From: Phoronis australis
Taxonomy: Eukaryota > Animalia > Phoronida
Direction: 5' to 3'
Assembly (NCBI GenBank): GCA_002633005.1
Contig: NMRA01000149.1
Location: 564,192-628,191 of the forward strand
Length of the DNA: 64,000 bases
Numbering within the stretch: the first letter of the stretch is position 1; each line of letters opens with the position of its first letter. The translations under genes were made by a program, and so were the position numbers. Of this stretch, positions 8,622 through 62,396 are shown in pieces. The notes under the pieces were generated by a model, which was given only the letters and a program-made list of their open reading frames with translations, did no database searches and was not told the origin of the DNA.

Positions 8622-9075
8622 CCTCAGTTTCAAAAATTCTTTTTTTTTCAATATGGCCGAAATTTTCCGTGGCGTGGGTTGTTGCGTCCTCTAGCGACAA
8701 TTTCTGAACCACGTGGTGCAAAATTTTACGGATTTTCACGAATTCCATTATAACTGATCTATGCGAAAACGAAGTCAATATCGCTGGGGCAGCAGTTTCT
8801 GATGAGTACCTGCTGCTAAATTATAACAAATCGCATGTGTTTCTCTGGTTGCATTTTTAAGGAACTCATCAAAACCGCAACAGCATTCGGCCTGGAAGCT
8901 AGTCAACTTTTCCAAACGAGGCTGATCGCAGGTCCTTGGCTTGCCGTTGCTGGTGTACGGCTGTCGGGTTCCAGCATTTCTAAGTTGAATCTCGTTTTAA
9001 GTGGTTACATTTTAGGATCGTTACATGAAATAGTGTAACTTTTGTTTGGCCAGCAAGTGAAGATCGGCAGTGAAC
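8622..9075. promoter_or_regulatory. Probable bidirectional promoter and 5' UTRs between the DBHS and ZMYM genes
   Basis: About 450 bp between divergent start codons, locally CpG-richer, with a palindromic E-box CCACGTGG at 8709-8716. Confidence 0.6.
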
Positions 9076-39000: not shown

Positions 39001-42000
39001 TTTTTGGTCTTTAAAGGGAATGTTGTATTTCACGTTGACCAGTTGTCTGTAGAAGCATCATTGGACTTCTCTCATAGTGGCCAACCTCCCATCAAAGTGA
39101 AAACTTCCTCTTATAACATACTTTAAAGCAGTACGCAGCGCCACCTTTGAAAATCTTGTTTTGTTTTTAGTATTCCTTATTTCAGGTGATTGAACCACTT
39201 AGCAGATGGAGTTAATGATTTCTTCAACATAAAGATTCACTGCACCTGTAACTTGATCTATTTTAGTTTGTAGTTTGTGATTTCAGCTTGATTGAATTAG
39301 TGTCGTGTGGATCTTTAAAAGCTTTGGCTGCATGAGGATGTTTGGAGCAGCAGTACATGTTTCTGAATACCCTCCAGAAGTCTTTTTGAACACATGGAGT
39401 ACTGCTGAAATAATCCATGTACTCTAACGTACTTGCCCACATGCCTTATTTTGTGTAGGAATATAACTGTACAATACTTTCTTACTTCGCTTGTATCAGT
39501 GTACCCATGATCGATAGTGTACCCATGATCGATAGTGTACCATGATCGATAGTGTACCCACGATCGATAGGGTACCCACGATCGATAGGTTACCCACGAT
39601 CGATAGTGTAACCACGATCGATAGTGTACCCACGATCGATAGTGTACCCACGATCGATAGTGTGCCCACGATCGATAGTGTACCCATGATTGATAGTGTA
39701 CCCATGATCGATAGTGTACCCATGATCGATAGTGTACCCACAATCAAAACCCTCGCAATTTTTGTTGAATAAACGAGTATTTAATGGTCTTATGCATTAC
39801 AGCGAATTTCGTTCAATCAAGTCTCAGACGCAAACAGCTTGTACTGCGTGCATGACATGTTGTTAACTGAATCACCCGTGTGCAAAATCTTTTTTTAATG
39901 CGTGTAGTAACAAGTTTCAAGTAGCAGAGGAAGCAGATGATAGGCAAGTTTCCATTTTTGAAAAAAATGCAAATTTGAAACAGAAATGTAGATTGAATTG
40001 TACTGAAAACTCCTACATTTATTTTAATCGAATTACTACTTGTCAGGAAATCACTACGACTTCTAGAGACGCGTTTTCAGAAACTTCAAGTTGTGGGGTG
40101 TTGATCATTTTTTGTGGGTTAAGTGAGTTGTCTTCTATCTCTTGTAAAATTTTAGTCACTTGACTGATTTTTCTCTTCGGGACACCATTGCGAACCCCAG
40201 AAAAATATGTTTTATTGCAATGAGTGAGCTGTTCCAAAAATAGCACAGAATGTACTTGGAAGGACTAAATAAGTTAAAAATGTTTTGAAAATGGGTACAC
40301 TGTTTCTACACATGAGTCCTGATTTATTTACCAAAATCTACCTTTCTTGTAAATGTCCACCCTAGGCTTCTCAAAACTTTTTCTTTTTAATTGCTCATGA
40401 TATAAATGCCACATTCAATTCAATATTTTCTTTACAGATGGTGAGCCAGAGAAGATGCCTGTAGTAATCCCTGTGCCAGTCCCCATCTACATCCCTGTAC
40501 CCATGGCCATGTACTCACTGCCCACACCCTTCCCATTTCCTGTTCCTATTCCTGTCCCCATTCCATGTTTTATACCAACTACGAAAAAGTCAACTACGTC
40601 CATTTTGAAACACATCAAGGTAGGTTTCAGTGTGTTCTGCTGCTTAACTTAACTGAGTTATGTTTATGTGCTACAATACTAGAGGAGAATTACTGTGTTG
40701 ATGCCAAATGGCAACTGTGTAGTTGTATTTGTGAATGGTGTCTTACATCTTGGAACTGAAACAGATTTCCATTCAGTTTGTGAGATCTCCATGTAAAGTG
40801 AATAAAGTGGGTTCTTTAACATGCATGATTTTGTCTGATTTAACATTGATGACGTTTTCTTACACTTTAGGAAATCCAGGAACGCCTTCCATCAGATCCT
40901 CTGGAGGCAGAGCTACTAATGATGGCTGAGGCTGTGGCATGCTCCGAGAAAGTGACGGCTGAGTCAAGCGACGAGAGTGACAAAGAAGATGGACCTGGTG
41001 AGACCGTAGTCAAGTTGAACTATCCATTTACTAACTGTAAACATTCGGTTTAGTGGTTAGGGCAGTTGAATTGGTAAACGGAAAAGTTCGGGGGTGGGTA
41101 ATTACCAGACATGGGTGCTTAAATGGAAAATTTTTTGAGAAATCAGTGGTGGGTGCTTGCTCGAACATGGGTGCTTAACTCTTGAGTCGAAGAGTCGCCC
41201 TGGCCTGCCATGACTTTTGAAATTGAAAACTCAAATGATTTGTCAGATTTTGATGGAACTTGTCACAAAGGTATTTTTTGCACAGGCACCAGATGATTTT
41301 CGGGTTTGTACTACTTTAGCGCTACCTGTTGGCCATTTTAGTTTTTGACAAGGCATTGCTCTTCTTTTGATTACTGCCGAAATAGAAATTTTTGGTGAAA
41401 CTTGACACAAGGATTAATGGCTGGGATGTGCTGGAACCTGTTGATTATTGGACAGATTGGTTTGCTATTGGCAAATGACATTTTATTTTTTGTTCAAATA
41501 TTGCTTGTCTGTTGATTGTGATCAAAATGGCTTGACATATTTTTGGATGAACCTTGACAATGGGATGTTTGGTTGTAATGTGCCAGCACCAGTCAATAAA
41601 AATGGCTGACCTGATTTATGTAATTATATTAAACGAAACTAATAAATACCCTAGAAGGGTGTGTGTTGCAGTGGTGGGTGCATTTCAACGATTTTCGTTG
41701 TTGTTCAAGTCAATGCCACGCAGTCCTGTGCATTTTGAGTAATCTTGATCAGCCTTAACTCATTGTGTGCTAGAAACGCTGTCTCTTTTTGTATAAAACA
41801 TTACGTTTTACTGAGGAGAGAGATTAATGTGTTACTGTTGTTTCAGAGAGTGGGTTAGACTCCTACCAAGAAACACCCACAGCACTGAACACAGACTCTA
41901 ACACGTTCGGTGAAGACATTATGCAGATGGCACTTCAGATGGCTGAGATGACAGAGCCTGTTATGGACTTAGAGGACTCGCTGGCTCCTGTCCCTGTCAA

Positions 42001-45000
42001 TCAAAGTAAGTAGCTGATGGTGACACTTATCTGTTAATGTTTTGTTGCATATTTTGGTGACTGAGGGAGCTTTTACGAGTGTGTTCCTTCATTCGTAGTG
42101 GTAACAATTTCGCTTTATTCCCCCTGTCTAAGTAGAGAATAGTTTGATGCCTTAGAACTAGCATTAGTTGATAGAATTTTTGCGAGATGTTGTTCCTTTC
42201 ATTTTTGTGTTTATTTTTCATAGCTCAAGGGGACTTTTCCACCATTGACTCGGAGAGTGGCATTTTCACAACTGGTGCGGCAAAACGTGGACGAAAACGT
42301 CAGTCAAGATCGTCCAAGCGTAACGTTGGAAAGCGACCGCGTACTGCTTCTCCCACTCCTGTCGCACCCCCAGTACAGGTGGCGCCCTCTCCAGATGCAG
42401 ACATGCACTTGAAGTATATGTACGGGGTGAATGCCTGGAAACACTGGGTGGCCCAGAAAAACCAACAGCTGGCGGAGAACTCTGATGGACGTGGCCGTAC
42501 AAAGAAGTTCAAAACAGATATCTTGGCTTGCACAGCAGATGAATTAAATTATTCACTGTGTTTGTTTGTTCAAGAAGTCCGGAAACCCAATGGATCTGAA
42601 TACGCTGCTGACAGCATTTATTACCTCTGTTTAGGTATTTACTTATTTTGTCTTCCACAAATTCAAATGCTCTGTGGTCTAATACCATTACATTGACATT
42701 TTGTGGTTGTGATTTCAATTTCAAATACTTACAGTATACATCTTCTGTGCTGACACTGCTTTTGTTTACGTACTGTTTTGAGGTCAAAATACCTCATCTC
42801 TTAGAAACCTGGATGGTACTTTGCATCTGGCCAATAGATGAATACAAGAACCACTAGCACCAACTGCCCACATTATCCCAAACACTGATGTGTTTCTTTT
42901 TCATGAAGCAGAGCAGTTATTGTCTCAGCTACGGCCAGTCCACCCTGGGTATCAAAATCTGTGGTGCTGGTCAAAAAACTTCCAGGAATGTCTTAAGTGA
43001 CTGTAAACCTGCCTTTCATGACAAAAAATGAGTTAGACCTGTCATCGTTTTGAAATTGGTCTGAAATTGTTTCTTAGTCAAATTTAGTATGATTTCTGGG
43101 CTTGGAAGGAACTGATAGTTGGTGATTGGTTGAGTTGAGTTGTAACAGTTTGTCAGTGTATTCCCTCACCATGGTTGAGTTGAGTTGTCACAGTTTGTCA
43201 GTGTATTCCCTGAGCATGGTTGAGTTGAGTTGTCACAGTTTGCCAGTTGGTGATTGGTTGAGTTGAGTTGTCACAGTTTGTCAGTTTATTCCCCGAGCAT
43301 GGTTTCTAGCTATATCAAAATGTTACTTCTTTGCAAGACCAAAAATAACTGTCTGAGTAAGGAACTAGCTGAGACTTATTGTATTCCATAAGGTTCTAAA
43401 TCAAAATTTAGTTTCTTCAATGTAAAGCAGGTTTATTGGTTTCTGCATTTGAAAACCACTGTCAGCTGGAATACTCACTAAACATGATGTGGTGTGCTTA
43501 TTATTTTTTCAAGTGTTCAAACGATGAGATTCGTATTGGTAAGGCTGGGTAAATATTAACTACCAGCATTATAAACATCTTCCATTAGCTGTTACAGTCT
43601 GTTGTCATTTTTCATCTTTGTCCTGTAATATACCACTTTTCTTGTATTTGTTGTCTTTCAGGTATCCAACAATATCTATTTGAAAATGGTCGCATCGACA
43701 ACATCTTCACTGATTTCTACTATGAGAAGTTTACTGGATGTCTCAACAAAGTGATTGGTCTATATGAAGCGCGTCTTAACGGTGAAGGTAAATTTACCTC
43801 GCAGATGTTTTTTACTGTAAATTTAACAGACACAACTGGTGATTCTCAAGATGCATTTTCCAGCACTGTTGTTACCTTCTGATGTTTCCATGTATACACA
43901 ATGGTGGCTGATTCATGATGATTTATATGTTAGTAACATAAAAAATTCATGAATAACTGTGTGACATATTGAAGGATTTGGTATTTTAGTCAATAGTGGA
44001 CTGTTTGCCACATGTTAGAACCCTTGTCATGAGAACAGGACCCTTATCTCTCTCTACAAACCACAATTATAACTCTTACTACACATAAAACACCCCTGCC
44101 AGCCAGTTCTTTTCTCTTGTGTTAAGGATTCATCCTTTAGGTATCACTTGCTACATTTACTGGTAATTATAACAGAAGAAGAGGGGCACTCAAGAGTCCC
44201 CAGGCCTCCCGTCCAAACAACCAGAAAAACCTGTGCGATATTAGGGGTGAAGGAAACTCTTCCTGTCAATTGTGGTTGGTCTCCACAGTGATTACTATAA
44301 TCATTATTATCCTGTGACAGGTATTCTAGTTTGTCGTATTGAAGAGGAGCACCTGTGGGAGAGCAAGCAACTTGGTGCCCACTCACCCCATGTCCTACTC
44401 AACACCCTGGTCTACTTCAACACACGATATTTCTTCTTGCGCTCGCCAGAGGCTCACCTCAAGTTATCCTTCTCACACATTATGAAGCAGTGGAAGAAGA
44501 CGGCTGTAACGAGCTCTAAGAATCAGAGCCGTAGTGTGTACTTGCGCTACTATAATCCGGCGATGACAGGTGAGAGGCAGGGGAGGGAGTGTTGTGGGTT
44601 CCAAGTGCTCTCTAATGGAGCTGTTTGTACTGTGAGTTGGGGACTATTATTTATTCTTCATAAAATTTTGTTCTTGCATGTAGATTTACTTGTGTCTGAT
44701 TTGACTTTAAATTCTCTTTTATACCTATTTCATTAAATACCTGACAGTTAAGATTGTGTACCAACTTCAGTTAATTTTTTCGGGGTCTGTGAAAAGTCTT
44801 GCATTCTCTGATGACATACCTTAATCTACTCAAGTTGATAAATAATTGCTGTGTTTACTGAACTTCACATGATACGACAAAACTTTTCTGAAAATGGTCT
44901 GGGTATGTGGGCCCGCCATGCTACGACATCAAATTTTTATGGTTGTCCACTCAGTGATAAGTCCACCTGTGTGGCACCCACCCACCCACCCACCCACCCA

Positions 45001-45066
45001 CCCACATACACACACACACACACCCACATACACNTAAAAATATAGGTACATATCACAAACATGTAT

Positions 45067-45098
<32 letters not shown>

Positions 45099-46205
45099 CA
45101 ACAACCATGCGATTTAGGGGATAGATAAAATTTCATTGCCAGCTGTTGAGACACACAAATCACATTCTACTGAAATTTGAAACTATATCTATGTTTTGTT
45201 ATGGTTTCTAGGGATTGAAGTGAGAACAACTGTGTTGGCTGTTCTCCCTGTGGATTTTATTTGAAATCAGATGTGATGTAATGTACATGAGATCTGTTGA
45301 CTATTCTGAGAATCAGTGGTTTTATACTGTACGTTGTGTCTATTCAGATCTGAAGAAGAGTCGAGGTCGTCGAGAGCCAGATGAGTCCAATGGTCTGGAG
45401 CAATGCGAGAATCTTGAGAACCCTCTTAGATGTCCTGTGAAACTGTACGAGTTCTACCTGTCAAAATGGTAAGGCAAGCAGGGGTGATTAGCTGGGTGTT
45501 TTATTGCACAAAGTCTGTATTGAGTAACTGAAAGCTTAACGTTGGTATTTCATTTCAGACCTCTCGCTTCTTTTGCTTTGTATGCACATCAGTTGCAAAA
45601 CTTTATCATCCTTTGTTGCCCTTGTGCCTCCATTCTTTGTTACATATAAACTACAGCACTGAAAAAGTGGGGGGCTATAGCTTCTCAATCCCCCTGTGGT
45701 GTACCGCCCATAAACCATGGGTGGCTCAGCACTGAAAAAAGTGGGGGCCTATAGCCCCCCAAGCCCCCTATGGTGCGCCGCCCATGAACTATGTGTGAAT
45801 TTTCATCTTTTTTGGTTTCCAGTTTCCTCTTTTTCTTTTTTATCATTATTTTGACTTTATTCATGCACAAATGTTTATTTCAATTAAATTTTACAACACA
45901 AAATATTTCTATCATACAAGCCTATTTGAAGAACAATACATCACTAGGAAAATTTTCCTCTTTTTCGTCATTGGTCATTCCAAGCCCTGAGAGATCAATA
46001 TTGTTTCTGTTGCAGCCCAGAGAGCATCAAGAACCGTAGTGATGTGTTCTACCTCATACCGGAGCGGTCGTGTGTGCCTGACAGTCCGGTTTGGTATTCC
46101 ACACAAGCGCTCGGGTTAGAGGCTACAACCAAAATGATGAACCGTGTGCGGACCGTACGAGAAATACAAGAGTCGTTCCTACTCCACCCCAGTCCAACTG
46201 ACTAA
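9076..46205 (+). CDS. ZMYM4: Zinc finger MYM-type protein (ZMYM2/3/4, Drosophila woc-like): acidic N-terminus, MYM (zf-FCS) fingers, Pro-Val-rich region, DUF3504
   Basis: Phase-consistent GT-AG exons: 9076-9150, 13668-13819, 15195-16387, 16586(or 16628)-16900, 17696-17772, 19680(or 19632)-19754, 20923-21025, 22137-22240, 22672-23240, 23672-23996, 26104-26530, 35514-35644, 38152-38305, 40438-40619, 40871-40997, 41847-42005, 42224-42634, 43662-43787, 44321-44569, 45348-45468, 46016-46205 (TAA). Family hallmarks: [151 protein letters not shown]. The first two exons are less certain. The symbol denotes the family. Confidence 0.93.
9981..11024. mobile_element. Non-autonomous DNA element with GC-rich termini
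   Basis: Ends CAGTGGCGGATCTAGG / CCTAAATCCGCCTATG with poly-G and poly-C subterminal tracts. CTTTG is repeated on both flanks (9976-9980, 11025-11029). Confidence 0.7.
10265..10328 (-). repeat. tRNA-like / SINE head fragment inside the 9981-11024 element
   Basis: The minus strand reads GTGGTGTAGTGGTAAAGCAC...GGTCGTGAGTTCGAGTCTC, with A-box and B-box-like motifs but no convincing acceptor stem. Confidence 0.5.
14574..15127. mobile_element. Non-autonomous TTAA-flanked element, Kolobok-like; same family as 1342-1838
   Basis: TTAA at 14570-14573 and 15128-15131; imperfect TIRs GGGACATGG / CCATGCCTCT. Confidence 0.7.
15195..16387 (+). CDS. ZMYM4: ZMYM large acidic low-complexity exon
   Basis: About 397 open D/E/S-rich codons between a TTTTAG acceptor and a GTAAAT donor, in phase with the neighbouring exons. 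Confidence 0.85.
17979..19577 (-). mobile_element. TTAA-flanked DNA transposon derivative (Kolobok-like) carrying a decayed THAP domain
   Basis: Perfect 14-bp TIRs AGGAGAATGCCACC / GGTGGCATTCTCCT; TTAA at 17975-17978 and 19578-19581. Purine-purine (AG) termini fit Kolobok better than piggyBac (CCC/CAC). Confidence 0.85.
19195..19413 (-). pseudogene. Degenerate THAP zinc-finger coding remnant
   Basis: Manual translation across two frameshifts and one stop: [69 protein letters not shown]. The third Cys is replaced by Phe. Confidence 0.7.
19893..20059. repeat. 27-bp minisatellite, about 6 perfect copies
   Basis: Unit TTTTTATTGGGAACATGCTTGATACTA. Confidence 0.95.
21533..22125. repeat. 50-bp minisatellite spanning an assembly gap (N run about 21658-21837)
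   Basis: Unit TTGCAGAGTTTGGTGTGTGAATAGACTGGTGARGGTGGCTGGATTCTTTG on both sides of the gap. Confidence 0.95.
22672..26530 (+). CDS. ZMYM4: ZMYM MYM zinc-finger exons (22672-23240, 23672-23996, 26104-26530)
   Basis: Repeated CxxC...FCSxxC motifs such as [32 protein letters not shown] and YFCTLKCL. Confidence 0.95.
24505..24735. repeat. 31-bp minisatellite, about 7 copies
   Basis: Unit GCTGGYGTCTGTRCCACCTRCTTACATGTTC. Confidence 0.9.
25055..25817. mobile_element. PIF/Harbinger-like MITE
   Basis: TIRs GGGCTGTTCCAGCAAAATC / GATTTTACTGGAACAGCCC with a 3-bp TSD, TCA. Confidence 0.85.
27175..27298. repeat. 10-bp tandem repeat (CCACACTAGG) following a SINE-like fragment
   Basis: About 12 degenerate copies; a reversed B-box-like GACTCGAACC lies near 27139. 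Confidence 0.75.
29990..31153. mobile_element. Non-autonomous element with terminal and subterminal inverted repeats
   Basis: AATAGTCCTTTGCGAGTTT...TGACGTCACGGGAAGTGGGGCAA on the left matches TTGCCCCTCTTCCGGTGACGTCA...AAACTCGCAAGTCAGCTATT on the right. No clear TSD. Confidence 0.65.
31523..33145 (+). CDS. Crypton-type tyrosine-recombinase-derived coding module (DUF3504/KCTD1/QRICH1-like), nested in a ZMYM intron
   Basis: Exon A 31523(or 31568)-32290 and exon B from 32649, ending at a donor at 33041 or a stop at 33145; the GT-AG intron between them is in frame. Motifs: [107 protein letters not shown]. Confidence 0.88.
33331..33978. mobile_element. MITE with GGGGCxxxTTCCAAGAAA termini; related copy at about 37211-37797
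   Basis: GGGGCTCGTTCCAAGAAACTAGCTTAAG on the left and TAAGTTAGTTTTCTTGGAAGGGGCACC on the right. Confidence 0.6.
37793..37998. repeat. 68-bp tandem triplication
   Basis: Units start at 37793, 37861 and 37929 (GGCCCCTGGTCTGTTG...GCTCTAATT). Confidence 0.9.
39498..39741. repeat. 18-bp minisatellite, about 13 copies
   Basis: Unit AGTGTACCCAYGATCGAT. Confidence 0.95.
42224..46205 (+). CDS. ZMYM4: ZMYM C-terminal DUF3504 (Crypton-derived) exons
   Basis: Motifs [62 protein letters not shown] and PVWYS; stop codon at 46203-46205. Confidence 0.95.
43120..43303. repeat. Degenerate ~45-bp tandem repeat
   Basis: GGTTGAGTTGAGTTGTCACAGTTTGTCAGT occurs 4 times. Confidence 0.8.
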
Positions 46206-49517: not shown

Positions 49518-49538
49518 ACGTCATTCCGGAAGTGACGT
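49518..49538. promoter_or_regulatory. Composite ETS-CRE promoter motif upstream of the THAP-ZMYM gene
   Basis: Near-palindrome ACGTCATTCCGGAAGTGACGT, containing CCGGAAGTGACGT, about 140 bp upstream of the ATG at 49679 in a CpG-richer patch. Confidence 0.55.
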
Positions 49539-49678
49539 ACCTGGCCTAAGCTTGTTCCAGCCAGCCATCTAGAGTCTTCGTACGTACTTTAAGGACTGAT
49601 ATCCTTGAGTCAGAGTATTTGCTTATTCTTTAACAGCAGGTTTTGTCATCTATTCGCCCCATTTAGTCGCTGTATACG

Positions 49679-50110
49679 ATGCCAAAAGGTTGCTGTGTAC
49701 CGGGATGCACCCACTATGACCTCGCTCGAAGCTTAGGTTTTGCCTTTCACCGGTTTCCGTCCGATGACGAAGTTCGCCGTAAATGGATCATTCGTATTAC
49801 GGATTTCCCGTTAGCGGCAAACGCTTCCAAGCAAGAGGTGCAAAAATTAAATTATCGAGTATGCGGGAAACATTTCCTTCCCTCGGACTACGAGAGTGAA
49901 ATATACTCGGAAATTATGAAGCTTCCTCCAAAACATCGCCTGAAAAGCGACGCCGTGCCGTCGATATTTCCATCAGATTCAAAACCTTTGAGCAACTTTA
50001 CAGCTGTGCAGACAAGTGATAGCAACTGCAAGCCAAGTTCATCTGTTAAGTCTGAATCCAGTGAAGAGGTCAGAGAACCAGACTTTGACAAGTTTGACAG
50101 CAAGGCCAAG
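49679..50110 (+). CDS. THAP domain (C2CH zinc finger) first exon
   Basis: MPKGCCVPGC...FHRFP..DEVRRKW...RVCGKHFLPSDY...RLKSDAVPSIF shows all C-C-C-H ligands, the conserved P/W/F/P residues and the AVPTIF box. Donor AAG|GTATTT. Confidence 0.95.
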
Positions 50111-53100
50111 GTATTTTTTCACTATGCCTGGGTATAAATGCAGGTTGTTCAAGTTCAGTGAACTATAGGTTCAGTTGGATGAGGTTCAGAATAGAAATAG
50201 GTCAACTTTCATCTTTGGCGCATTTAGCCGAGTTGAAAGACTTGTGGAGGTGAGCGCATAGCCAAACAGCATTTGATAAAATTTTGAATCAAATGATAAC
50301 CCGGAGAAATATCAGTTGTCATCTGCCAATTTTCTAATACAGTACCCTATATTGTAAGTGGGCCTCCTTGTGACAATTAATTTTCTGCATCCACTATCTC
50401 TTTCTCAATTCTGTCAAAGCATGACTTAAATTATTCTTTGTGGCCCAACAAGTATTAATGTATATTTTGGGGCAGTTCTATTTGTGACGGACGTACAATT
50501 ATAGAGAACATGTTTATCATTTGCGAAAAAAATGTTTATCCTAGGAAAATGATTAATATATCAATTGATAGATATGATCAATAGCATTCAAAGCGTGTAT
50601 CGACTTTTCTTCTGGTGCCTTTTATCTGACTGAGAAAATTTCCTGTAAAGGGGTGTGACGAACGTAGGCAGCGAATTCGAATTTTAGGAAAAAAAATCAA
50701 AATTAATTTTTGTGAGTTGCACTTAGTTACACTTTTTTGTTTTATATGATATCTTCTAAGAAATTTTTGTCAGACAGCTCGTTGTAAGTCGAGTGTGTCT
50801 GACATACGTGACGGACGCACGCTCTGAAATTTTTAGTATTAAATTGAATTCAGAATAATTCAAACTTTTGCAGTATTTAAGTTACTTTGGTTGTTTACTA
50901 CTGATTCAGTGTTATTAATCAAAATACACTGATTGACATTTTGCACAAAATCATTACAGGTAGACAAATGTTGGGAATATACACTAGTTTTTTAACTTTT
51001 CAATGCATTTCATTAAACATATAAAATGAAAGTGCTCAGAGGAGTGACACAACAGTCTTCTTCAATAGAAGGTAAACCAACAACAGTGTAGCAAAATCAG
51101 TCAACAAAGGAACAGGGTTATCACAGAATCTCAGATAATTCAAAAAGTAGACTTTCTGGCAAAAAATGAAAAACATATTTTCTGAAAGCCTGTTCAAAAC
51201 TATCAAACACTATAGTTGTTAAACTAACGTGCCTTTTCAAAAGTTTTCAAATTTTGCATTTTTTTTCAAATTGAAACTCGAATAACTCAAAAACGGTAAG
51301 TCTGGGAAAAAATAATTCAAGTCATTTGAAAGAATATTCATCAGAGAATCAACATGCAAAAATTCATGTCATTTCCTCTTCCCGTTTTACATGGCACTGC
51401 TGCACGATTGAAAATGGGCAAAAATTCGCCAGATACGCCATCTTGAAAGCAACTTCCGGTTATGCAGCTCTTGATAATAGGTAGTCACAGGAAACTAACA
51501 TGAGGAAAATTGGTCCTACAATGCGCCCTCTACAGGTGCGCGTGTGTAATTGCCGATATTTTCGCCATCTTTGATCGGAAGTTCATGCTTTCGGGTGTAT
51601 TATTAGCACTTGTCTACTTCTGTGCCAATTTTCAGCCATGTACGTCAAAAAATGCGGCCTCTATGAGTATGGTATTTGAAGCTGAAATTGGAAACAAAAT
51701 AGCCACAACATCCGCTATTTTGGATCCGATCATGACGATAAACAATAGGCTTCCAGTACTCTTGGAGTTACACGTTGTGTGTAAATTTCATGGTGATCAG
51801 ACGAGAGGCATTGAATGATATCATATCATGGTGTACAAGATGGCATTTTTTCTAGTTTTGGAGAATATTCCGGCAGAGATTTATTCATCTTACAGTTTCA
51901 TATTCTTCTTCCCGTAGTCTCCATCAATTTCCTCTTTCGTTTCTAAACGATAATTTAATATCCTCGACGCTCAGCAGAAAAAAATTAGTCTAATTCTTAA
52001 AACGATTGCGACATCAAGGTTCTTGTTTTGACAAAAATATGAGGTGAGACAATGTAATCATTTGCTATGAAACCAGTTCATACAAGCCACCCAAGACACT
52101 GAAAAACTATTGTCAGTGAAGGTGTGAATGCTAATAAAGTAGGTGACAGGTTGCTTCTTAAAACCCCCAGTATTGGCGTTTTCTACACCAAACTTAGCAG
52201 GTCAGAGCAGAAATAACATGTTGACTCCAGCGCAACAGCAATTTCACATGTATTCTTTTAGGTCTCTTATTATTTATACTCCAGAGCATCTTAGGAATTC
52301 TTAATATTTGAATATTTTTCCGTCTTGAATTTTCCAGAAGCTAATCACTTCTTTACAAACACGGGGCAAGAGCAGAAAAACATTTGAGTTCATTAAATTC
52401 ACATTTTGTTTTATTTATAATGTGGTCCAGTACTTTTGAAAGTGAAGAAGTCCGATGCTTCTAGTTCAAATCTGTAGCAAATTCTTAACGTGATTTTAAA
52501 GTTGAAATATTTAATCCTTTTAAGGTTCTTAGGTGTGATATAAATTTTATCTTCTGTGACCTGCAAAAATGGGTCCGCTTAGGCAAAAATGAAAGTTATA
52601 GGACAGTCAAATATAAGTTTTGAAACTAAAGAGACCGGGCTTTCCGATGAAACCAGAAATGTTAGTGTAGTCACAATTTTAATTTTTTGTCTCTTGGTTG
52701 ACCTTTTTGCAGAATTGCCCTTTGATTTCTCAGTCTTTTAATGTTCAACAGATTAGAAACTTTTTTAATTTTAGTTCTGTTTAACAAAACGCGTTCACAA
52801 AAACCTGATGTGCAGACGTATTAAAATGATGAACGTATCAATGAATTAGTAATAAAACATGCAGATGTTGAATGCTAGATACTGTTTACAGGGCGCTAAA
52901 AGATGTACTGTCACTTCAAATTACTTACGGACAAGATTGCTGGTGTAAATTCATGAAAACAGTGATAGAAATCAAGTATTTAAAGCAAAAAACGTTGTTG
53001 ATTTACTTGATAAGAAGCTCAATTTTCTTTGCACTGCCTTGACATGAGTTCATGGTAGCATTGTGTGATAAAATTTTTGTTTTTCAAAACTGAGCTGTTT

Positions 53101-56100
53101 GTTTGCCATTCCTGTGCCCATAGAACACGTGATGACTCATGCACTTTCCTTTACTGCAAGGCATAGCCATATCATATATGGTAGACTCAGGCGCAGAGTC
53201 TGATCCACAGAAATTGGATTTGACCTTTGCATTGTACTGACTGCAGCATAGAGTCTGACTGCAGGGTTTCCAAAAATGTACTCGTATGGACGAGGGCATT
53301 GTGAAGGAACCTCCGACACCTCGTCAAGGAACATTTACTTAATTGGTGTTCAAATATTGAAACCCCAAAAATTGTTAAACTGATGAACTTCTGAAACGCA
53401 GTCAGTGTTTTGATGCTGTAAAACATGACTTGACATATATCACGTGACCAAATGTTTTGTTATTCACATCTCTTGTGGTCACAAAAGATCTCTAGACTAT
53501 ATTCTCATGTTGCAATAGAGCACAGGAATATTCGCAGTGTTAAGCACTGTTTTTGATTATACTGCTGCTAAAAGGTACAAGTATGTCTTCGTGTCAGCTT
53601 AATTCTATGTGTCATGTGCAAAAAGTGTGAAATGTGTTAAGAATAGCAGAATCTAGGGGAATGATTCCCTCCTTCATGTTCGTGGCATAAACCAAATTTT
53701 AATGCTTTTGCTTTTGTGTATTTCCAACTGTAGGAAGTCATTGCTGACATTGGCATTATGGGAACGGAGAAGCTGGATCAGGAAAAGCAGAGTGGGTCGG
53801 AGATCATGCCTGTTAAACCAGGTAGGTTGTAAACCAACTCAGCTCAACATAATGGCTAAGGTAAACATGGTCTGCTGAAGGCGGTGCTGCTGTAGGAGGT
53901 TGATGAACAGTTTAGCTGATGACCATCTTGTTACTTCGCCACATTTGCAACGTTAGTTTTTCTATCCGCAGCATTTATCTTGAATAAATTAAAAGATACT
54001 GATTTTTAATGAAATTCTCGCAGACAAATTGAACCCTCAATGATCGTAACAGCATTGACTTAATTCCTGTTGTAATCAAAGTCACTTGTCGTGTAGTTTT
54101 AAGAGCATAATGTTAAGTCCCTGTAGTGGGCCTTGTCCAATGGTTGATATGTTATGAATTGGTGGTTTTCATTGTGTTTTTGGTCTACTCTAGCAGTAAC
54201 GAGTCAAGTCAGTTCGAAAAATGGAAAAGGGAAGACTAGTGGAAGTGGTCATAAAAGGCGATTCAAGTGCAGCGTGTGTCTCACGGTGGGCAATGTTTTA
54301 TTAGTTTAGCACGATTGTTCCTGAAGAAGGTTACAGTGACATCCCCAGACTGTTGCAATCTTAGCTGCATTCTATACTTGCAAACCTGGGATTTTTACTG
54401 ATAAGACAGTTCAATAGCTGGAGAGACGAACTGTGTCATTTTTGTCTTTATCATAATTATACTTATGGCAGCATTTTGCTGTAATATTTCTATCTGCAAG
54501 AAAAGAATCCTACATTGACACTCTCACTGGTTGAGATCAGGCAACTCAACTGGTTTGCGTATCTTATTGGAATCTGCTAGTGTTGATCAAAGGGACCATG
54601 CTGTTGTAGTTAATTACATCACCTCAGGCTACTGATGTTATTGTTCTCTAGATAATCAGGCCCATTAAAAACACAAGGGGGATGGGGGTGGGGGTGGTCA
54701 ATAGTATTTTTTTATATTTTCATTTAGAAAGTTTTTGATAGCATATAACATTTGAATAGTTCGGGAAAAGTACACATGGTTACTGTTTTTGAATTTTTTT
54801 AATTGAACAAGAAATGTGACTTGTACTACCTAAAACTTTTGTATAATGTTGTCATATTATGCTCCTCCTGTTAACTCTGCTGGGTGTGCAACATAATAGG
54901 GCCAATTACCAAACCAGCCTGCAGTATTTGGAATTTAAGGTAAGCCAAGTGTCATACACAATTCTTGGGATGTGATCTCCTGTTTTTTGCTCTGTCTACC
55001 AACTAAATGCTGATGGGTCACAAACCTGTTTATGGCATGAAAAGGAAGGATACCCCCAAGGCCGAGCAATTCTCTTGCAAAACAGGCATTCCTCCTTAGA
55101 GCTGTTGTGTTTTCATGTGTGACTCTTGAATGTTTATTTTGAAAAACAGCTTCAGAGGTGATTTGCTGTGTAGTTTTCAAGTAGTTATGTGTTGAGTTTA
55201 GCCAAAGCTTATGTTTGCCCATATAATGCTTTTTTGCTCCTCTAAAGGAAGAATTTAGACTGTAAAAGTAGTTGTTTTCTCTTAATGAATTTCCTTTGTG
55301 TTTCAGGTTGACTTTTGCAAGTACAAAACTAAGCATTTTGGACAAACCAAACGTCTGTGCAATGACACTTGTTACAAAATGTTTCGTGCCCACCCTGGCA
55401 AGTACATTCGAAGTCTGCTTAAAGGTCATGCTGCTTGTCCTCCATTTCCTGCTGTGGTCACACCCCCCTCTGGTGGGACAAGAGAGTGCTGGGGGTGCTT
55501 GAAAGAGACTGACCTGAGAATTACTTACCATGGCCTTGACCTTTGCAGCGAAGCGTGTCTGTACCACTATGAGTTGTCGTTGGACACGACTTGCTCAAAT
55601 TGCTTGCAGAAGATCGCGCTATTCTGTATCAGCAAGTACAGCAGTAGCTTTGGTCAAGGCTTCAAGCAGTTCTGTTGCGCCACCTGCCTGGAAGAATACA
55701 AGACACGTGTGAAGCTGTGTAGTTCCTGCAATTGCGACCTGTCAAACTCCATGCATGATGGCTTTATGGCACCTGTCGGCACGATGGGAGTTTTTCGCGA
55801 CTTCTGCACAGAGACATGCATGAAGAAATATTTGGACAGTTACAGGTAACATTTATTGGATATTACTACTTGATCATTGATACGTCTGTTCTCTGATTGG
55901 CCATGCTGTACAACAATAACTTCCCATTAACCATGAAACTTCTGTCCTGTGATTGTCAAAACATGGTACTGTAACTTTCGATTTGCTGCGTTGTTATACG
56001 ATTTCTGACACTTCTGTCCTGTAAGTGGTTGAAATGCAGTACGATAACTTACGATATAGCATAATATTGACCAATCTGGCCGTGGAATATCACTATGTTT

Positions 56101-59100
56101 ATGCCGCCTGAACTTCAGATATCGCTATTAGCAATATGACCAATTAAATGCTGTAGAAATCATAAACCCTGACCACGAAGAAAGCAGACAATGCCAGTAC
56201 ATCAAAGCAGGTAAGAACAAGCTGATCTAATTACAGGCTAATAGTCAGAGGAAAGAAGCATCAGTGGATGTGTAATGAAACACATTAGATAGATCTGTTG
56301 GGCATATTGGGTCATATTGGGTCATATGGACCTAGTGAGAGCAATGTTGCTCTTGGCTGGCTCTCCCTTGGTCCATATAACCTGGTATCACCCTCAGGAT
56401 CGATACATTTTCATTGGTCTAGTAGTTCCGCATGTGACTCATATCTAACTACGAAGCCAGAAATAAGAGATCTGGTGTAGCACATGCTTTTGTATTACGT
56501 AGACAATAGAAGTTCGGTTAACTTGTTACGAATGACGTCTACCAATTTCAAGATAATTTTGTTAAGGTTTGCGGCAGTTAGTATTTTGCACTTTACATGA
56601 AAGTTCCAGTTGTGTTCCGTTATTTGACAAGGCACATCTCAATTTTGCACTTTACATGAAAGTTCCAGTTGTGTTCCGTTATTTGACAAGGCACATCTCA
56701 ATTTTGCACTTTACATGAAAGTTCCAGTTGTGTTCCGTTATTTGACAAGGCACATCTCAATTTTTGTCTGGTGGCACCGGATACTATAATTGTATTTTCA
56801 TTGCTTTTTTCTTTTGAAAGGTTCGAAAACCTGTCACAATAAAACATTTGCGTTTGACATTAGTCTATAAAAGTGCGTCACACCAGATTTATTTGCTTGT
56901 TTTGATTGTTGAAGCACCCTCTGGTGGCTGCAGTGGTTACAGTTGCCATACTTGCTGTTTCCTCATTTTTCAATTACTTCCAACATTGTTGTGAGTAACT
57001 AGAAATGTTCACTTTTTTGTATTTTAAAATATTATTTACTGCATGAACTTGGTTGAGCGCTAATTTGGTGCCTAATATTTTTTACGGAAAAAGTCAGAAA
57101 ATAAATTTTAGCTGTCTGCTGTATTTTGTCCTAATAAATCTAATTCAGTCCTCCAGCCTCTTGACGAGAGCTTGTTGGAATATGAGAAATTGTTCCAACA
57201 TGGGTATCAATGCTTGAAGCTTTAGATTAAATGAGTTTGGTTCTTGCGAACATTTTGTCCCATCAGCACCCTTGGTTATTGTTGTGTATCTGTTTTCAAA
57301 TGGTATACAGCCCTATGCGAGTTCAAGCATCCGTCAGCAACTGCTCTGGTTGTGGTCGGGCCACGTCTACAAGCCGCTGTGTCTTCTTCAACAACTGTTT
57401 GCACAAGATCTGCAGTACAGCATGTATGGGAAAGTGTACAATGGAATATGGCCTGTCGAACCTGAAAGAATGCGACAACTGCTGTGTGTTGTATGAGGCT
57501 GTCAACTGCCATGTGTTAAACTTCGAGGGAAAAAGACATCTTTTCTGTACGATCACCTGTTTGAATGTGTACAAGGACCTTCATACAGAGGTAGTTCAGT
57601 TATTGTATGTTTATATTATCTGGCCTTGGACCTGATGAAATTGGTGTGTGTAATGAATTTAGACAATTTTAAGGCTACCCAGAACTCTGCCAGTGACTAT
57701 GTGTTTTTGCATAAAATTTTTGAGGTTTGTGGTTAACTCTTGAATATCGTGCATTATCTCTAAGGTTGTGGGTTTGAAAGCCTGTGATGGCTACGTAATG
57801 TTTGTGAATCAAGTGCTAATAATATTTTTTATGTGTTTCAATTCAATGTACTTTGGATTGTTTGTCACCGTAGCGTTCCATCAAATTCAAATATCACTTC
57901 ACTCTGTATTATCCATCCCCGTGCTGGCCATCTTCTTCATACATCATCATCACCAGTTTCATCATTTTTTGAGCTATGGTTCAGTTTTGCTCCCTAGAAT
58001 GTTTTCATTAACATATTTATCTGGTACAGTAAAAATTATTTACTTTCAGACAAAATAGTTCTTGAAATCATACCTTTTCTTCTATTTTTCAAAGGATTAC
58101 TGCATTTCTTTTAAGTGCTCAATGTTTTTCCAAACATTGTTTACAACAATGCCACTCAATAACTGCTCAACAGAAAAGTTTTTATATTTATTTTTTTCAG
58201 AGTTTTGACAACTTAAAAATTAAACTATTCCATGTTGTGTCCCAAACTGATTTTTACCAAAGATATTTTATGTTATTGTAGCGGGTTGGGAGTGTTCTTC
58301 CATCAGCATTCCATTTCTTTGTTTACATCCATTGTTTTGGCTAGAGATTTTCACCTCTTCATTTATTAGGGAGTTTTGGCAAAGTTGTGTGTACATATAT
58401 GGACCTGGAATCTCCCTGTTTCTGTTCCTAACTATGTCTTCAAAAGATGATCCTATCAATGTAAAGAACAAGGAAAGCCTTTTTACCTTTGACCTATAGT
58501 TAAGTCTGAAGAGATCTCTGTTCTGACCAGAGCTTGAACCTGGGATTTTCCACTAACCATGCAGATGCTCTAGTTAACTGAGCTATCAAGACCATCGATT
58601 AATAATTCTTGCGTAGATCATATCAATGGTCTGATTTACAATTATTGACCTTAAGGCATTACCCCGGAGCTGTTCAGATGTTGCACACAATGTCTATTTC
58701 CGCCTTCTCTAAGATGATGAACTGCATTTGGTGCAACATGAGGAAGGACAACTTTGACATGGTGCAGCAGACAATCTCCAAGGTTTCTCATCAGTTCTGC
58801 TCCTTCAAGTGCTTGTCAATGCACCAAGCCAAGATGAAGAGTCGTTTCCAGATGAAACCCTACCAAATAATGCCTGGTGGCCTACAGGGAATGTCCCAGC
58901 AAGCAGTACTCCAATCAGGTATGAATAGCAACAAAAATGAATAGTTTGTTACGATTTCTTGCCATGTTCACAACAGCTATTATGTACATGACATTTTAGC
59001 ACCTCTGTATATGCCTAAGTTAGAATGCAAACAGTCACAATCACACAAACTGTTTGTGCAGATCTCCAAACCACAGACTGTCATAATCTATTGTTGCCAC

Positions 59101-62100
59101 AACTTGTGTTTTTGTGGCTTGCACAAACTGTCCGTAACCATGATGTTGCGGCAGTTTTTACAGACATTTGAAGCACAAATTGTCACATTATAACCAAAGT
59201 TCAATTAGCTGCAGTGACAGTCTGTTCAAGTCTTCAGTCTTCAGAGTCTTGAGGAATCGTTGGTTTTACCTGCATCCATAAAATGGGCAATGGCCGAGGA
59301 GAGTAGAGAATCCCAAGGCAACTTGAGGAACAAGTTCCCTTTTCCCTTCGTGTCGGGAGACTTAAGAGAATGCTACAGTTATCGATGAAACGGTGAAGAG
59401 GAAAACTGTGAAGGTGTGTCGGGGGTTGACAGAATGAAGAGGTTGGTGGAAACTGCGATATTGGCAGAGATGAATATTCGGTATAAAGACATGGAAGTGA
59501 CATGAGGCATAAAAGCAAGTGGACATTGACACTGTAGACTAGATATATAGGATGTTAACTATTGTCATGATGTTAATTGTCTGATATGGCATATATTCAT
59601 GCATCTTAAAATCATCGTGTTTGGTTGTTTTCCTGTGAATTTTTGTAAAAGGAACTTAACTGCCTCCACAAATTCAGACACATGATGACTTCACATTTCT
59701 AAGTGGTTGGTGAAACTACTACAGATTGTTGAAAAGGGAAGTTATGAAAATTTATGCTTTGAAAGTGTCTACAGACCAAAGCCCACATTACTTGAGCATT
59801 TTGTTAGGTTTCAACTCCAGACGAAAGCAGTTTTAAATCGAGGCTAAATCCAGATATCGATCCAGTCCATGGTTAAACATCCTCCCATTCTTTTGTCCAG
59901 TATGACTAGGTCCAAATAGTTACTAAAACAGTCACCAGGGGTCTGTTTCATGAAAGTAACTTAAGATTTTTAATATACAGAAATTTGGTCTGATGCTCTC
60001 ACTTCACAGTTGTTGAAAAAAAGGTTTAGTCAAGTAATTACTCTACAATTTAGAAAAGACAGGCAGTTATTGTGTATATTCCCATGACTGTACTTTTGCA
60101 GTTTTGTGGTGTGCAAGACCATTAATGCCTGACCTTAGATAATTCAGCATTATTTATATGCAGTATTATTAATGACAGTGGCTCATGTACAAATCTATTG
60201 TTGAAATATAAGGTATCGTTGACACAGACCGTTTCTAATTATCTGAAGGGTAAGGTGCTTGTGCCTTCTGAGACGGTATTTTTGGGGCGAGAGGAACCCC
60301 CTATTTTTCAGCCCCAAAACTGAGGCTTTGATATCCTTGTGAATTACTGTCGCAATTTTGAGGATTATGACAGTCTGCAAACCACAAATTGTCAGAGTGA
60401 AAAGTTAGGACTGTTTGTGCTTCCTAGGTGACAGTTTTAAACAGTTACAACAGTTTCTGGTTTAACACATCTGTTGTTAGTTTTTTTAAACCAGTTTGTA
60501 GAACTCGTTACTGCAACATCTTAATGCAAAACATTGAATTCCTCTCAATTCTAGGATAACCAGGATCCTCCAAGCTTTGCAAATGGTTCCATTTTCTGGG
60601 TTATTTTAATGTTTTCATTGTCCCTGCTTATGTATTTTAATCTTTGTTATCCAACTGTCTTCCGTAGCGGTCCCTGTCCAGCCCAGTCAGTCATCGCTTC
60701 CACAGATTGCAGAGATCATATCCTTAGCACCTGGAAGCACTACTGGCCAGATGGTGGCTAATACAATAGAATCAACAATGAGAACTTCTACAGTGAGCTT
60801 GTTGATCAGTAATTTATTCTGGTGGCAGATATTTAATAAATGTCATGACCAATGCAACCATGATTTAGCCATGATTTTACCATGGTCAGAAACATGGAAA
60901 AACATGGTGACCATGGTTTAACCCAGACACATACTGACCTAGTCGTCTGTGAATACAGATATATGGAATCTTAGTGGAACACAGTTCAGCCTAAGGTTTT
61001 TTGCAAATCAAAGCTTTAGCCTTTGGCAGTTCCAATACCCAATGAAGCAAATGATAAAAAATGTATTTTTTCACCACGAAATGGAATTGACTTGCATACT
61101 AGAATTCTGTATATCTGACAATACACATGTCCATGACTTTGTCCACCATGTTGAATATTTAATTTGGGTAAAGTAAACAAATCAATTCCCATGTAAGTGG
61201 ATAAGATAGTATGGTCTGTTCAAACCAATGTTTTTCAAATGACTTTGAATTGTAAAAGGTTGCAATTGTGCCATTCACACTATACTTAGGATTGTTACAA
61301 ACTCATTTTTGCTCAATTTTGCTCAATTTTGGAGAGCATTGTAAGATGCTGATGTCAGTAAAAATACTGTCTGTTAATTAGCTGTCGATACAAAAATAAT
61401 GCAAGGTTTTTGATTATTTCAGTTAAAGACTTACCGTAATATTATTACAACTGCCATCTATTGCCATCACCTATCACCCCTGGTGTAGGTTGACTGAGTG
61501 AAGCCAAGATGTAAGGGATGAAAGCTAATATAGCAAATAATGTGAAGGTTTCTGATACAAACAATCCTGCTGCAATCACATACAGACGGCGAGCATGTTT
61601 TATCAAGCACTGTTTTCGCCATTTGCTTGTTATTTTATGAGAAATCGGCATTTTGTTTTCTAATCTCAACCTGTTGAACACAATGTAAAAATTACTGCAT
61701 ACATAGCACGCATGCCCATTTCAAAGCCATAGACCACTGTGTTACTCCTGGTCAGGAGGCTCCATTTTCATTCTGGGGATACTGCAAATTTACCTTTGAG
61801 AAACGACTGGGACAGCTGAATGGAAAAAATGAGGACAAGGGGCATAGATAAAGACATTTCACAGAGGATTGCCTGCTGTGGAATTTTAAGTGATGTTATT
61901 TAATGGCACATTTCTATAAGGAACCGCGGATATTTGTGAAGATCACATTGAATAGAACAGACTCGAGGGTATAAAACAGTTATGTTTTGTAACAACTATG
62001 AAGGTAGAATCATCCTGAAAAGTTGTAATATTCATTGAATTTGGTTGAGATTTGCAGACATTTCATCGACTGGTAAACCAGGAATATTCATTCTGAAGCA

Positions 62101-62396
62101 TTGATCATGATTACAGCGCTTAATTGTGAATGTAAATGCTACACTATGAAAATTTTTGTTGAATGTCATACAGTTTTGTCAGAATTGTTGAAAGCTGTCA
62201 GTGCTGACCATCTTCGAATAATTTTTTTTGTTTGCTCTGAAGGCATCGATGCCCCAAACCATCGTCCTGAAGGAAGTCATCATTCAGCACCCGCCCCCCA
62301 AGCACGTGAAAAACAAGTCCCTCCAATGTAAACCTTACAGTGAGACTAAGGCTACAAGCTTTCATTGTTGCAGTGAAGACAAGGAAATACAGACAG
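49679..62396 (+). CDS. THAP-domain and MYM zinc-finger chimeric gene (tandem ZMYM paralog); probably continues past the right edge
   Basis: Phase-consistent exons: 49679-50110 (THAP), 53734-53821, 54194-54285, 55307-55845, 57311-57590, 58714-58918, 60668-60792, 62243-62396. Exons 2-8 match ZMYM exons 20923 to 38305 one for one in order and intron phase (e.g. GIMGTEKL vs GIMGMDKL, and [32 protein letters not shown]). No stops or frameshifts seen. Confidence 0.88.
50470..52720. mobile_element. About 2.25-kb DNA transposon derivative with a 4-bp TSD (Sola-like)
   Basis: Termini GGGCAGTTCT / AGAATTGCCC with TTTG on both flanks; subterminal motif GTGACG(G/A)ACG occurs three times. A diverged inverted copy of the right end begins near 63638. 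Confidence 0.65.
56583..56760. repeat. 59-bp perfect tandem triplication
   Basis: Units start at 56583, 56642 and 56701. Confidence 0.95.
58526..58588 (-). repeat. tRNA-like / SINE head fragment
   Basis: The minus strand reads GATAGCTCAGTTAACTAGAGCATCTG...CCCAGGTTCAAGCTCTGG, with A-box and B-box-like motifs. Confidence 0.5.

Follow-up and report, generated by a model that had tools for sequence, protein, structure and literature searches.

A transcribed tandem copy of a WOC/ZMYM gene in Phoronis australis carries a THAP-coding first exon

A 64,000-nt stretch of Phoronis australis DNA (assembly GCA_002633005.1, contig NMRA01000149.1, 564,192-628,191, forward strand; hereafter the window) holds a WOC/ZMYM gene and, directly downstream, a second gene assembled from a THAP exon and seven ZMYM/WOC-derived exons. 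Our preferred reading, to which we give a probability of roughly 0.6, is a transcribed tandem copy of the parent that has a THAP exon in place of the acidic N-terminus and likely encodes a self-targeting chromatin regulator. Splicing of exons 1-2-3 and 5-9, a start of its own, an open frame and purifying selection support the chimera. The features are listed in Table 1.

Table 1. Features of the parent gene and the THAP-headed copy (window positions; read counts are for runs X1, X2 and X3).
Feature	Position	Strand	Parent exon (amino-acid identity)	Remarks
Parent WOC/ZMYM gene	9076..46205	+		Acidic N-terminus, 8 MYM fingers, QRICH1, DUF3504; 3' UTR to about 47950 by depth
Non-autonomous Kolobok-type element	17975..19581	-		Element 17979-19577 with TTAA, inverted termini; THAP frame disrupted, about 19413-19170
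Likely promoter and 5' leader of the chimeric gene	49519..49678	+		CpG-rich, composite motif, RNA onset
Exon 1	49679..50110	+		THAP domain aa 5-97 and Ser/acidic tail; Pfam, PDB, Atlas, spliced reads
Exon 2	53734..53821	+	20923-21025 (41%)	Joint to 54197: 5, 4, 7 reads
Exon 3	54197..54285	+	22137-22240	First half of MYM finger 1
Intron 3	54286..55306	+		Apparently often retained
Exon 4	55307..55845	+	22672-23240 (55%)	Remainder of finger 1, fingers 2-4
Intron 4	55846..57310	+		Partly retained
Exon 5	57311..57590	+	23672-23996 (51%)	Fingers 5-6; joint to 58714: 7, 8, 2 reads
Exon 6	58714..58918	+	26104-26530 (53%)	Finger 7; joint to 60668: 12, 13, 8 reads
Exon 7	60668..60792	+	35514-35644 (51%)	Joint to 62243: 3, 6, 2 reads
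Exon 8	62243..62396	+	38152-38305 (76%)	Splices on, beyond the window

Gene structure and RNA evidence

The THAP exon begins 3,473 nt past the parent stop at 46205, in agreement with the predicted distance of about 3.5 kb, is open for 144 codons from its ATG and ends, as predicted, in a phase-0 GT donor at 50110. It matched the full Pfam THAP profile (PF05485, E = 1.5e-16), THAP2 and THAP11 in the PDB, and THAP clusters in the Atlas (0.93). A THAP domain is defined by C2CH zinc ligands, conserved P, W and F residues and a C-terminal AVPTIF-like box (PMC6004289); C5, C10, C62 and H65, the P, W and F, and an AVP-IF box are all present, and by sequence exon 1 is thus a THAP domain with predicted DNA binding. 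A word-based protein search with this exon matched 0 of 229 candidates, a blank of little weight, and no orthologue of the copy was found, the best match showing 40% identity over the exon.

RNA evidence was taken from three raw-read runs (X1, X2 and X3), 18-19% of each being read, so that depth is low; joints with fewer than 3 reads per run were not listed, the mapping loses some reads silently, and depth dips are unreliable as findings. The THAP exon was joined to the first ZMYM-derived exon (50110>53734) in 16 reads, all sense (6, 5 and 5 per run), which bears out the proposed first-exon replacement. The seven exons that follow keep the order and phases of their parent counterparts at 39-76% amino-acid identity, all introns are GT-AG, and the joined frame runs through 637 codons with 0 stops; the claim that diverged yet open exons mirror those of the parent thus holds. 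The chimeric gene has its own start, separate from the parent: RNA depth was 0 over 48404-49004, and sense depth was 2-6x from bin 49606-50206 on. The likely promoter has a CpG observed/expected ratio of 1.3-1.4 and contains, at 49526, the sole instance found by motif scan within the window of what we take to be an ETS-plus-CRE-like composite motif. Contigs of a fourth run (X4, Logan) contained no exon of the copy and were counted neither for nor against it.

Following the junction reads onward from exon 1, as had been proposed, recovered 5/7 joints within the window and an onward joint from exon 8, and failed at both joints flanking exon 4 (54285>55307 and 55845>57311), which were listed in 0/3 runs. 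The other joints averaged 4.7-8.2 reads per run, giving Poisson chances of ≤2 reads of 0.04, 0.01 and 0.16 per run. With these two joints unlisted and sense reads lying over both introns, a full-length THAP-MYM mRNA is an inference. Mean sense depth was 2.9 over intron 3 and 1.5 over intron 4, compared with 0.05-0.5 over introns 2, 5, 6 and 7. The exon 3 donor at 54285 is weak and non-consensus (G at +3), the pyrimidine tract of intron 4 is the weakest of the seven, and its acceptor at 57311 is weak. Retention of intron 3 would end the frame at 210 aa, without any complete MYM finger, and that of intron 4 at 383 aa.

These observations would also suit a locus that now serves mainly as a short THAP gene, with exons 1-3 continuing into intron 3 (210 aa), its MYM exons having been selected formerly and the chimera decaying or present in traces, and THAP-only genes are indeed the commonest class (37/51) given in a sea cucumber survey (PMC13228809). 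This alternative is unlikely, though it deserves serious weight: exons 5-9 are spliced efficiently, and the read fraction and listing threshold may account for the missing joints. Were the short THAP form the only one made, the locus would be of a more ordinary kind: a lineage-specific THAP gene whose ZMYM tail is decaying. On the preferred reading of a THAP-MYM chimera, the fully spliced mRNA would make up a minor share or be confined to certain stages, with slow excision of introns 3 and 4 acting as the gate.

Two transcription units, a THAP RNA of exons 1-3 ending in intron 3 and an MYM RNA starting near exon 4 or intron 4, could explain why run X2 showed a depth of 0 over 54792-55387 with exons 5-8 at 8-11x. 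Sense depth was unbroken across intron 3 and exon 4 in runs X1 and X3, however, no CpG-rich block lies between 52000 and 64000, the dip in X2 is of the unreliable kind, and moth gene models described below join THAP to the fingers; we regard this arrangement as quite improbable.

Loose read ends behind 62399 (7, 13 and 4 reads) had no match within the window, which places exon 9 outside it. By eye, its 30 available letters, a very short stretch, would fit either an in-frame or a frameshifted homologue of parent exon 40438.

Divergence, selection and loss of a finger

The copy and the adjacent parent grouped at 100/100 in the tree, as expected for the tandem duplication originally predicted, with a branch of 1.44 for the copy and 0.2 for the parent (the first tree omitted Capitella, whose sequence was a fragment). 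Over 485 codons of the ZMYM-derived exons, the THAP exon lying outside the comparison, dN/dS against the parent was 0.36 (bootstrap 0.27-0.45) with dS about 1.0. Exon 4 alone, open for 179 codons, gave dN 0.33, dS 0.81 and dN/dS about 0.4. At each of three distances simulated under neutrality, 0/2000 replicates retained an open frame. The copied exons are therefore under purifying selection and strongly accelerated, the copy evolving 6-7 times faster than the parent, and the dN/dS check agrees with the view of an old, maintained duplicate. Introns were claimed to be unalignable, and they are: 6/8 homologous intron pairs gave no match, and the remaining two gave one match of 18-22 nt each.

Acceleration, together with the loss of the most conserved finger described below, would fit a short THAP gene with a decaying tail. 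Against such decay, each of the seven MYM-region exons has kept an open, in-phase frame, 31/34 aligned cysteines are kept, and the 14 listed read variants in the copy exons include 0 stops (8/14 are non-synonymous; in exon 4, 4/6 are synonymous). An assembly artefact, an uncollapsed haplotype or read-through from the parent might be suspected from the tandem position, data on copy number ending at the limits of the 64-kb window. It is scarcely credible at this dS and with unalignable introns; three samples gave RNA reads that match the copy at 96-100%, depth is 0 between the parent 3' UTR and the THAP exon, and the reads and the divergence already refute it.

The copy has seven MYM fingers and the parent eight. 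Finger 8 and a Pro-rich stretch are deleted inside exon 6, a loss that the original prediction had overlooked. No finger of the family is better conserved than this one, at 75% identity to 18 orthologues; finger 1 stands at 72% in the family and has dropped to 46% in the copy. Given both changes, cofactor binding by the fingers may be lost. Pfam zf-FCS matches to single copy exons reached E = 0.003-0.007, below the curated cut-off when scanned singly, and the MYM assignment rests also on clear homology to the parent and orthologues. For exon 4, a word-based search against longer proteins matched 1 of 46 candidates (the blanks carry little weight), Atlas scores were all <0.8, and the PDB gave no sequence match.

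Parent gene and source of the THAP exon

Six N-terminal parent exons had been claimed; four were located (9076, 15195, about 16586 and 17696), and phase calls for a minimum of one further exon between 9150 and 15195. The parent exons beyond 40619 were read piecemeal, by visual inspection and with Pfam. The parent lies head to head with an RRM-RRM-NOPS gene, and ZMYM genes are described as likewise head to head with NONO/SFPQ/PSPC1 (PMC3212892, PMC3514665). The similarity of the 47-aa tail of the THAP exon to three upstream parent exons did not exceed that of shuffles, in keeping with the claim that the long acidic N-terminus has no counterpart in the copy. The duplicated part of the parent would begin in the phase-0 intron that precedes exon 20923, and a THAP-coding first exon, probably derived from a DNA transposon, would have supplied the promoter, the ATG and the phase-0 donor.

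A THAP-bearing element was found in the parent intron equivalent to intron 1 of the copy. Kolobok elements are defined by TTAA target duplication, purine-purine termini and a THAP domain (PMC6004289), and the element, with flanking TTAA copies, perfectly matching 14-bp inverted repeats at its purine-purine termini, and a THAP remnant, is by sequence of Kolobok type. The remnant matched Pfam THAP on a 29-aa piece (E = 0.0036) and the copy's THAP exon by tblastn (E = 3e-6, 17/50 identical, 34%). The longest open frame in its 1.6 kb has 105 codons, so that no intact DDE transposase is present, and the THAP frame is broken, indicating a non-autonomous copy. The element shows that such donors exist in the Phoronis australis genome.

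As the direct source of the THAP exon this remnant was rejected: it lies on the opposite strand, its termini are perfect, which makes it probably younger than the dS 1.0 split, and its DNA similarity to the exon (159, versus 143 ± 9 for shuffles) is within the shuffle range. Neither terminal repeats nor a target duplication were found around the THAP exon, and with the DNA similarity within the shuffle range its transposon origin is not traced; a host THAP gene is a possible donor.

THAP-WOC in a moth and related fusions

In Spodoptera frugiperda, the uncharacterized models LOC118264429 (XP_050556364.1), SFRICE_002917 and SFRURICE_008047 likewise place an N-terminal THAP on a WOC-derived MYM array directly downstream of an intact woc; one of them has THAP-MYM-QRICH1-DUF3504. 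The moth gene is also accelerated (branch 0.6 versus 0.077), and it retains the last finger, which the Phoronis copy lacks. The tree places it with moth woc, a grouping with the Phoronis copy is rejected by the AU test (p = 4e-126), and the two THAP domains have 31/86 residues in common. By sequence, the tandem THAP-WOC copies thus appear to have arisen independently, the moth case being known solely from database gene models. The THAP-MYM architecture occurred in 1/264 fetched homologues, surveyed by a two-sequence profile, run locally and unfiltered, together with a motif pattern. Pfam missed the THAP of protein P0179 when run on the whole protein and gave it for an excerpt, so whole-protein Pfam lists under-count THAP. 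In the literature searched, with subscription journals and InterPro/CDART outside the search, no paper describing a THAP-MYM fusion in either species and none naming the S. frugiperda locus was found. The fusion had been put forward as lineage-specific and not known to have been described: it is rare and no describing paper was found, but the S. frugiperda models share it.

Cofactors fused to a THAP or a transposase DNA-binding domain are a known theme, and it is the apparent recurrence on WOC that is of interest. THAP also precedes a transcriptional cofactor in C. elegans CTBP-1a (THAP-CtBP), where it is reported as needed for function (bioRxiv 2020.06.09.143248), and in sea cucumber THAP-SAP30; the cofactors differ, and CTBP-1a is one isoform from a single gene, while the Phoronis parent stays intact beside the copy. 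Host-transposase fusions of the KRABINER type are described from tetrapods: a separate exon encodes a transposase-type DNA-binding domain and is spliced to a regulatory domain of the host, usually KRAB, in most cases through an acceptor upstream of the transposase (bioRxiv 2020.05.07.082677). Here, too, a transposase-type domain on a separate exon is spliced to host-derived exons (16 joint reads), but unlike KRABINER the THAP is the first exon and its cognate transposon is untraced.

By analogy with other THAP proteins, the THAP head would bind specific DNA sites, and the seven fingers, judged from human ZMYM2, would recruit SUMO-dependent cofactor complexes. MYM fingers of ZNF198 are reported to bind LSD1-CoREST-HDAC1 and HDAC1-SUMO2 (PMC2532748), and human ZMYM2 to help repress transposable elements (PMC10629813). 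Together with HP1c, Drosophila WOC is described as taking part in activation (PMC9078007), so the copy could regulate in either direction. ZMYM/WOC proteins get to chromatin via partners and SUMO, and a THAP-headed version would be a natural test of whether the MYM array is a portable effector domain.

A wider scheme, which we consider speculative and rather doubtful as a whole, is that WOC/ZMYM recurrently acquires THAP heads in invertebrates: a duplicate would be capped by a transposon THAP, its product would recognise the termini of that transposon family and direct ZMYM-type silencing machinery to them, at least two origins (the Phoronis lineage and noctuid moths) would be involved, and here intron retention around the finger exon would tune the outcome. 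If true, recurrent THAP-WOC would give invertebrates an equivalent of the KRAB-transposase fusions. The layout's two independent origins suggest that animals lacking KRAB can gain new transcription factors by this route repeatedly. Spodoptera frugiperda has established cell lines, and the moth case makes the idea testable in that species.

With the Crypton-derived DUF3504 genes WOC/ZMYM2-3-4 the copy has in common the MYM finger array, the exon phases and a conserved post-finger motif; it differs in its THAP head in place of the acidic N-terminus and in having seven, not eight, fingers. It is a second WOC copy in an invertebrate, whereas a 2011 study states that there was no evidence of multiple WOC genes in invertebrates (PMC3212892). 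The same study describes ZMYM1, ZMYM5 and ZMYM6 as local ZMYM duplicates that likewise join MYM fingers to transposon-type sequence, so that the hAT fusions cited in the original prediction for ZMYM1/ZMYM6 stand, restricted to eutherians and not vertebrate-wide. Those genes gained C-terminal hAT transposase parts, whereas in the Phoronis copy an N-terminal domain of DNA-binding type replaces the first exons.

Structure and maintenance of the THAP-capped copy

The tandem duplicate of the WOC/ZMYM parent gene begins with a THAP exon that is open for 144 codons from the ATG at 49679, ends in a phase-0 donor and encodes a complete domain (Pfam E=1.5e-16; PDB matches THAP2 and THAP11; Atlas 0.93). 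Seven further exons, up to 62396, mirrored seven parent exons in the same order and phase, as the original prediction had it, with 39-76% identity, and the joined exons formed a single open frame of 637 codons. The parent exon preceding the first copied exon also ends in phase 0, so the THAP exon exactly suits its slot. Seven MYM fingers were retained and the eighth was deleted, the lost finger being the family's most conserved (75% mean identity to 18 orthologues). Comparison of the copy introns with those of the parent found no alignment, again as predicted.

Across 485 aligned codons of copy and parent, dS was ~1.0 and dN/dS was 0.36 (0.27-0.45); none of 2000 frames was still open in a neutral decay simulation. 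These values bear out the view that the duplicate is old and maintained. The copy kept 31 of 34 cysteines. A 20-row tree placed copy and parent together at 100/100, with branch lengths of 1.44 and 0.2, respectively, and relative-rate counts with 12 lophotrochozoan-side outgroups were ~3 to 1, the arthropod rows giving a weaker contrast. RNA reads yielded 14 listed differences within exons: 6 synonymous and 8 non-synonymous changes and no stops. The copy is real, expressed and maintained, and an artefact is scarcely credible.

Transcription, splicing and predicted product

Three stranded raw-read runs labelled as the same species were analyzed (18-19% of each run). Sense transcription of the copy started from ~49600, and RNA depth was zero at 48404-49004, so parental read-through is not its source. 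The predicted joint between the THAP exon and exon 2 (50110>53734) was found in 6, 5 and 5 reads, as were the in-window joints 53821>54197 (5, 4, 7), 57590>58714 (7, 8, 2), 58918>60668 (12, 13, 8) and 60792>62243 (3, 6, 2). The onward joint from 62396 was marked by 7, 13 and 4 loose read ends, unmatched in the window and thus leading to an exon outside it, whose first ten codons are open in these ends. THAP is spliced to ZMYM-derived exons; two separate transcription units are improbable.

The two remaining predicted joints, 54285>55307 and 55845>57311 on either side of exon 4, were listed in none of the three runs in either mapping. Up to 2 reads per run could escape listing, and some reads were also discarded in mapping, but the Poisson chance of going unlisted was low, at 0.04, 0.01 and 0.16 per run. 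Mean sense depth was 2.9 in intron 3 and 1.5 in intron 4, compared with 0.05-0.5 in four other introns. The predicted product would be 210 aa without any complete finger if intron 3 were retained, and 383 aa, comprising THAP plus four fingers, if intron 4 were; skipping of exon 4 shifts the reading frame. Since the exon 4 joints were unlisted and introns 3 and 4 carry sense depth, an mRNA combining THAP and intact fingers is one that we infer, from exon 4 conservation. A product that is mainly a short THAP protein with a decaying tail is rather unlikely. Reads of two runs contained a tandem duplication of 37 nt at 54565-54601, within intron 3, that the assembly lacks, and intron 4 contains a perfect 59-nt tandem repeat (56583-56764).

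The preferred reading, with a probability of roughly 0.6, is that the copy yields a protein, in some tissue or fraction, with a THAP head that would bind DNA sites and a MYM array that would recruit chromatin complexes, by analogy with ZNF198, ZMYM2 and fly WOC. To bind LSD1-CoREST-HDAC1 and SUMO-HDAC1, ZNF198 needs its MYM fingers, and these alone suffice (PMC2532748), a comparison made at the level of the array. ZMYM2 requires SUMO binding to reach chromatin (PMC10629813), and the partners of fly WOC are ROW and HP1c (PMC9078007). The copy belongs with the THAP-cofactor and host-transposase fusions already described (bioRxiv 2020.05.07.082677; 2020.06.09.143248); the fusion principle is established, and the full transcript and C-terminus of the copy are predicted only.

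Distribution of the THAP-MYM layout

Exon 4 was searched unfiltered against 1.84 billion representatives. The 150 listed of 161 matches included no orthologue of the copy; the best spans the exon at 40% identity. THAP occurred in one of 264 fetched proteins (161 with at least 150 residues ahead of the first finger), the Spodoptera frugiperda RefSeq model XP_050556364.1 (P0179), an excerpt of which gave Pfam THAP E=4e-12. A second gene model at this locus carries THAP, zf-FCS, QRICH1 and DUF3504, and a third, fused model runs through the whole woc directly into the THAP-capped copy (65-70% identical). These gene models (P0179, P0268, P0269), known from database sequence and uncharacterized, thus present a THAP-capped tandem woc copy as in Phoronis. 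Whole-protein Pfam scans overlook THAP in the moth RefSeq isoforms.

A quick tree clustered the moth copy with moth woc, on branches of 0.6 and 0.077, respectively, and a clade uniting both chimeras was rejected by the AU test (p 4e-126). It therefore seems that the layout originated at least twice, and this independent parallel makes convergence a testable claim. The architecture had been thought undescribed. With the moth models it is present in databases, and no paper on either chimera was found in the open-access literature. According to PMC3985635, DUF4371 transposase-like proteins have either THAP or zf-FCS as their N-terminal domain, not the two in one fusion. The Lates calcarifer model XP_050925183.1 (P0249) has a SET domain ahead of ZMYM4-type fingers, which could reflect a further swap at the N-terminus or the fusion of two genes in one model.

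The parent gene and mobile elements

Features of the parent region
Feature	Position	Strand	Remarks
RRM-RRM-NOPS (NONO/SFPQ-type) gene	4694-8690	-	Head to head with parent
WOC/ZMYM parent gene	9076-46205	+	Eight MYM fingers, QRICH1, DUF3504
Non-autonomous Kolobok-type element	17975-19581	- (THAP frame)	In parent intron corresponding to first intron of copy
Two-exon Crypton/DUF3504-like unit	31568-32290, 32649-33145	+	Nested in 9-kb parent intron; weak QRICH1 and DUF3504 matches

Less than 500 bp separate the start codons of the NONO/SFPQ-type and parent genes, so the ZMYM-DBHS linkage known in vertebrates (PMC3212892; PMC3514665) also exists in this invertebrate. Of the six parent exons originally predicted upstream of the copied region, four were located, and at least one more is inferred. 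Top protein matches of a parent exon were molluscs, a nemertean and annelids, at ~50-60% identity across most of the exon, with no close relative found in the databases. A parent intron contains a 180-N assembly gap with duplicated flanks (21657-21837).

The Kolobok-type element is 1,599 bp long and flanked by TTAA, and its 14-bp inverted termini are perfect, which is the Kolobok signature (PMC6004289). It establishes that DNA transposons carrying a THAP are mobile in this genome. Its THAP frame is broken and shares 17 of 50 residues with the copy THAP. Considered as donor, the element is probably excluded, being inverted, with perfect termini and DNA similarity to the THAP exon within the shuffle range. 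No transposon termini were found flanking the THAP exon. A transposon origin of the copy THAP is likely on general grounds, given the expanded THAP genes of lophotrochozoans (PMC10027918).

The catalytic motifs of the Crypton/DUF3504-like unit appear degenerate. A predicted splice from parent exon 26104-26530 would be in frame (phase 1) and give an alternative 406-aa C-terminus, and the unit resembles KIAA1958, which has two DUF3504 exons (PMC3212892). A CpG-rich block at 30045-31119, containing a 23-bp inverted repeat, could instead be the unit's own promoter, or an insertion. A short sequence, repeated in either orientation near the NONO-type gene and the first intron of the parent (6937-7921 and ~9890) and with one translation shared by several frames, is probably a small mobile element.
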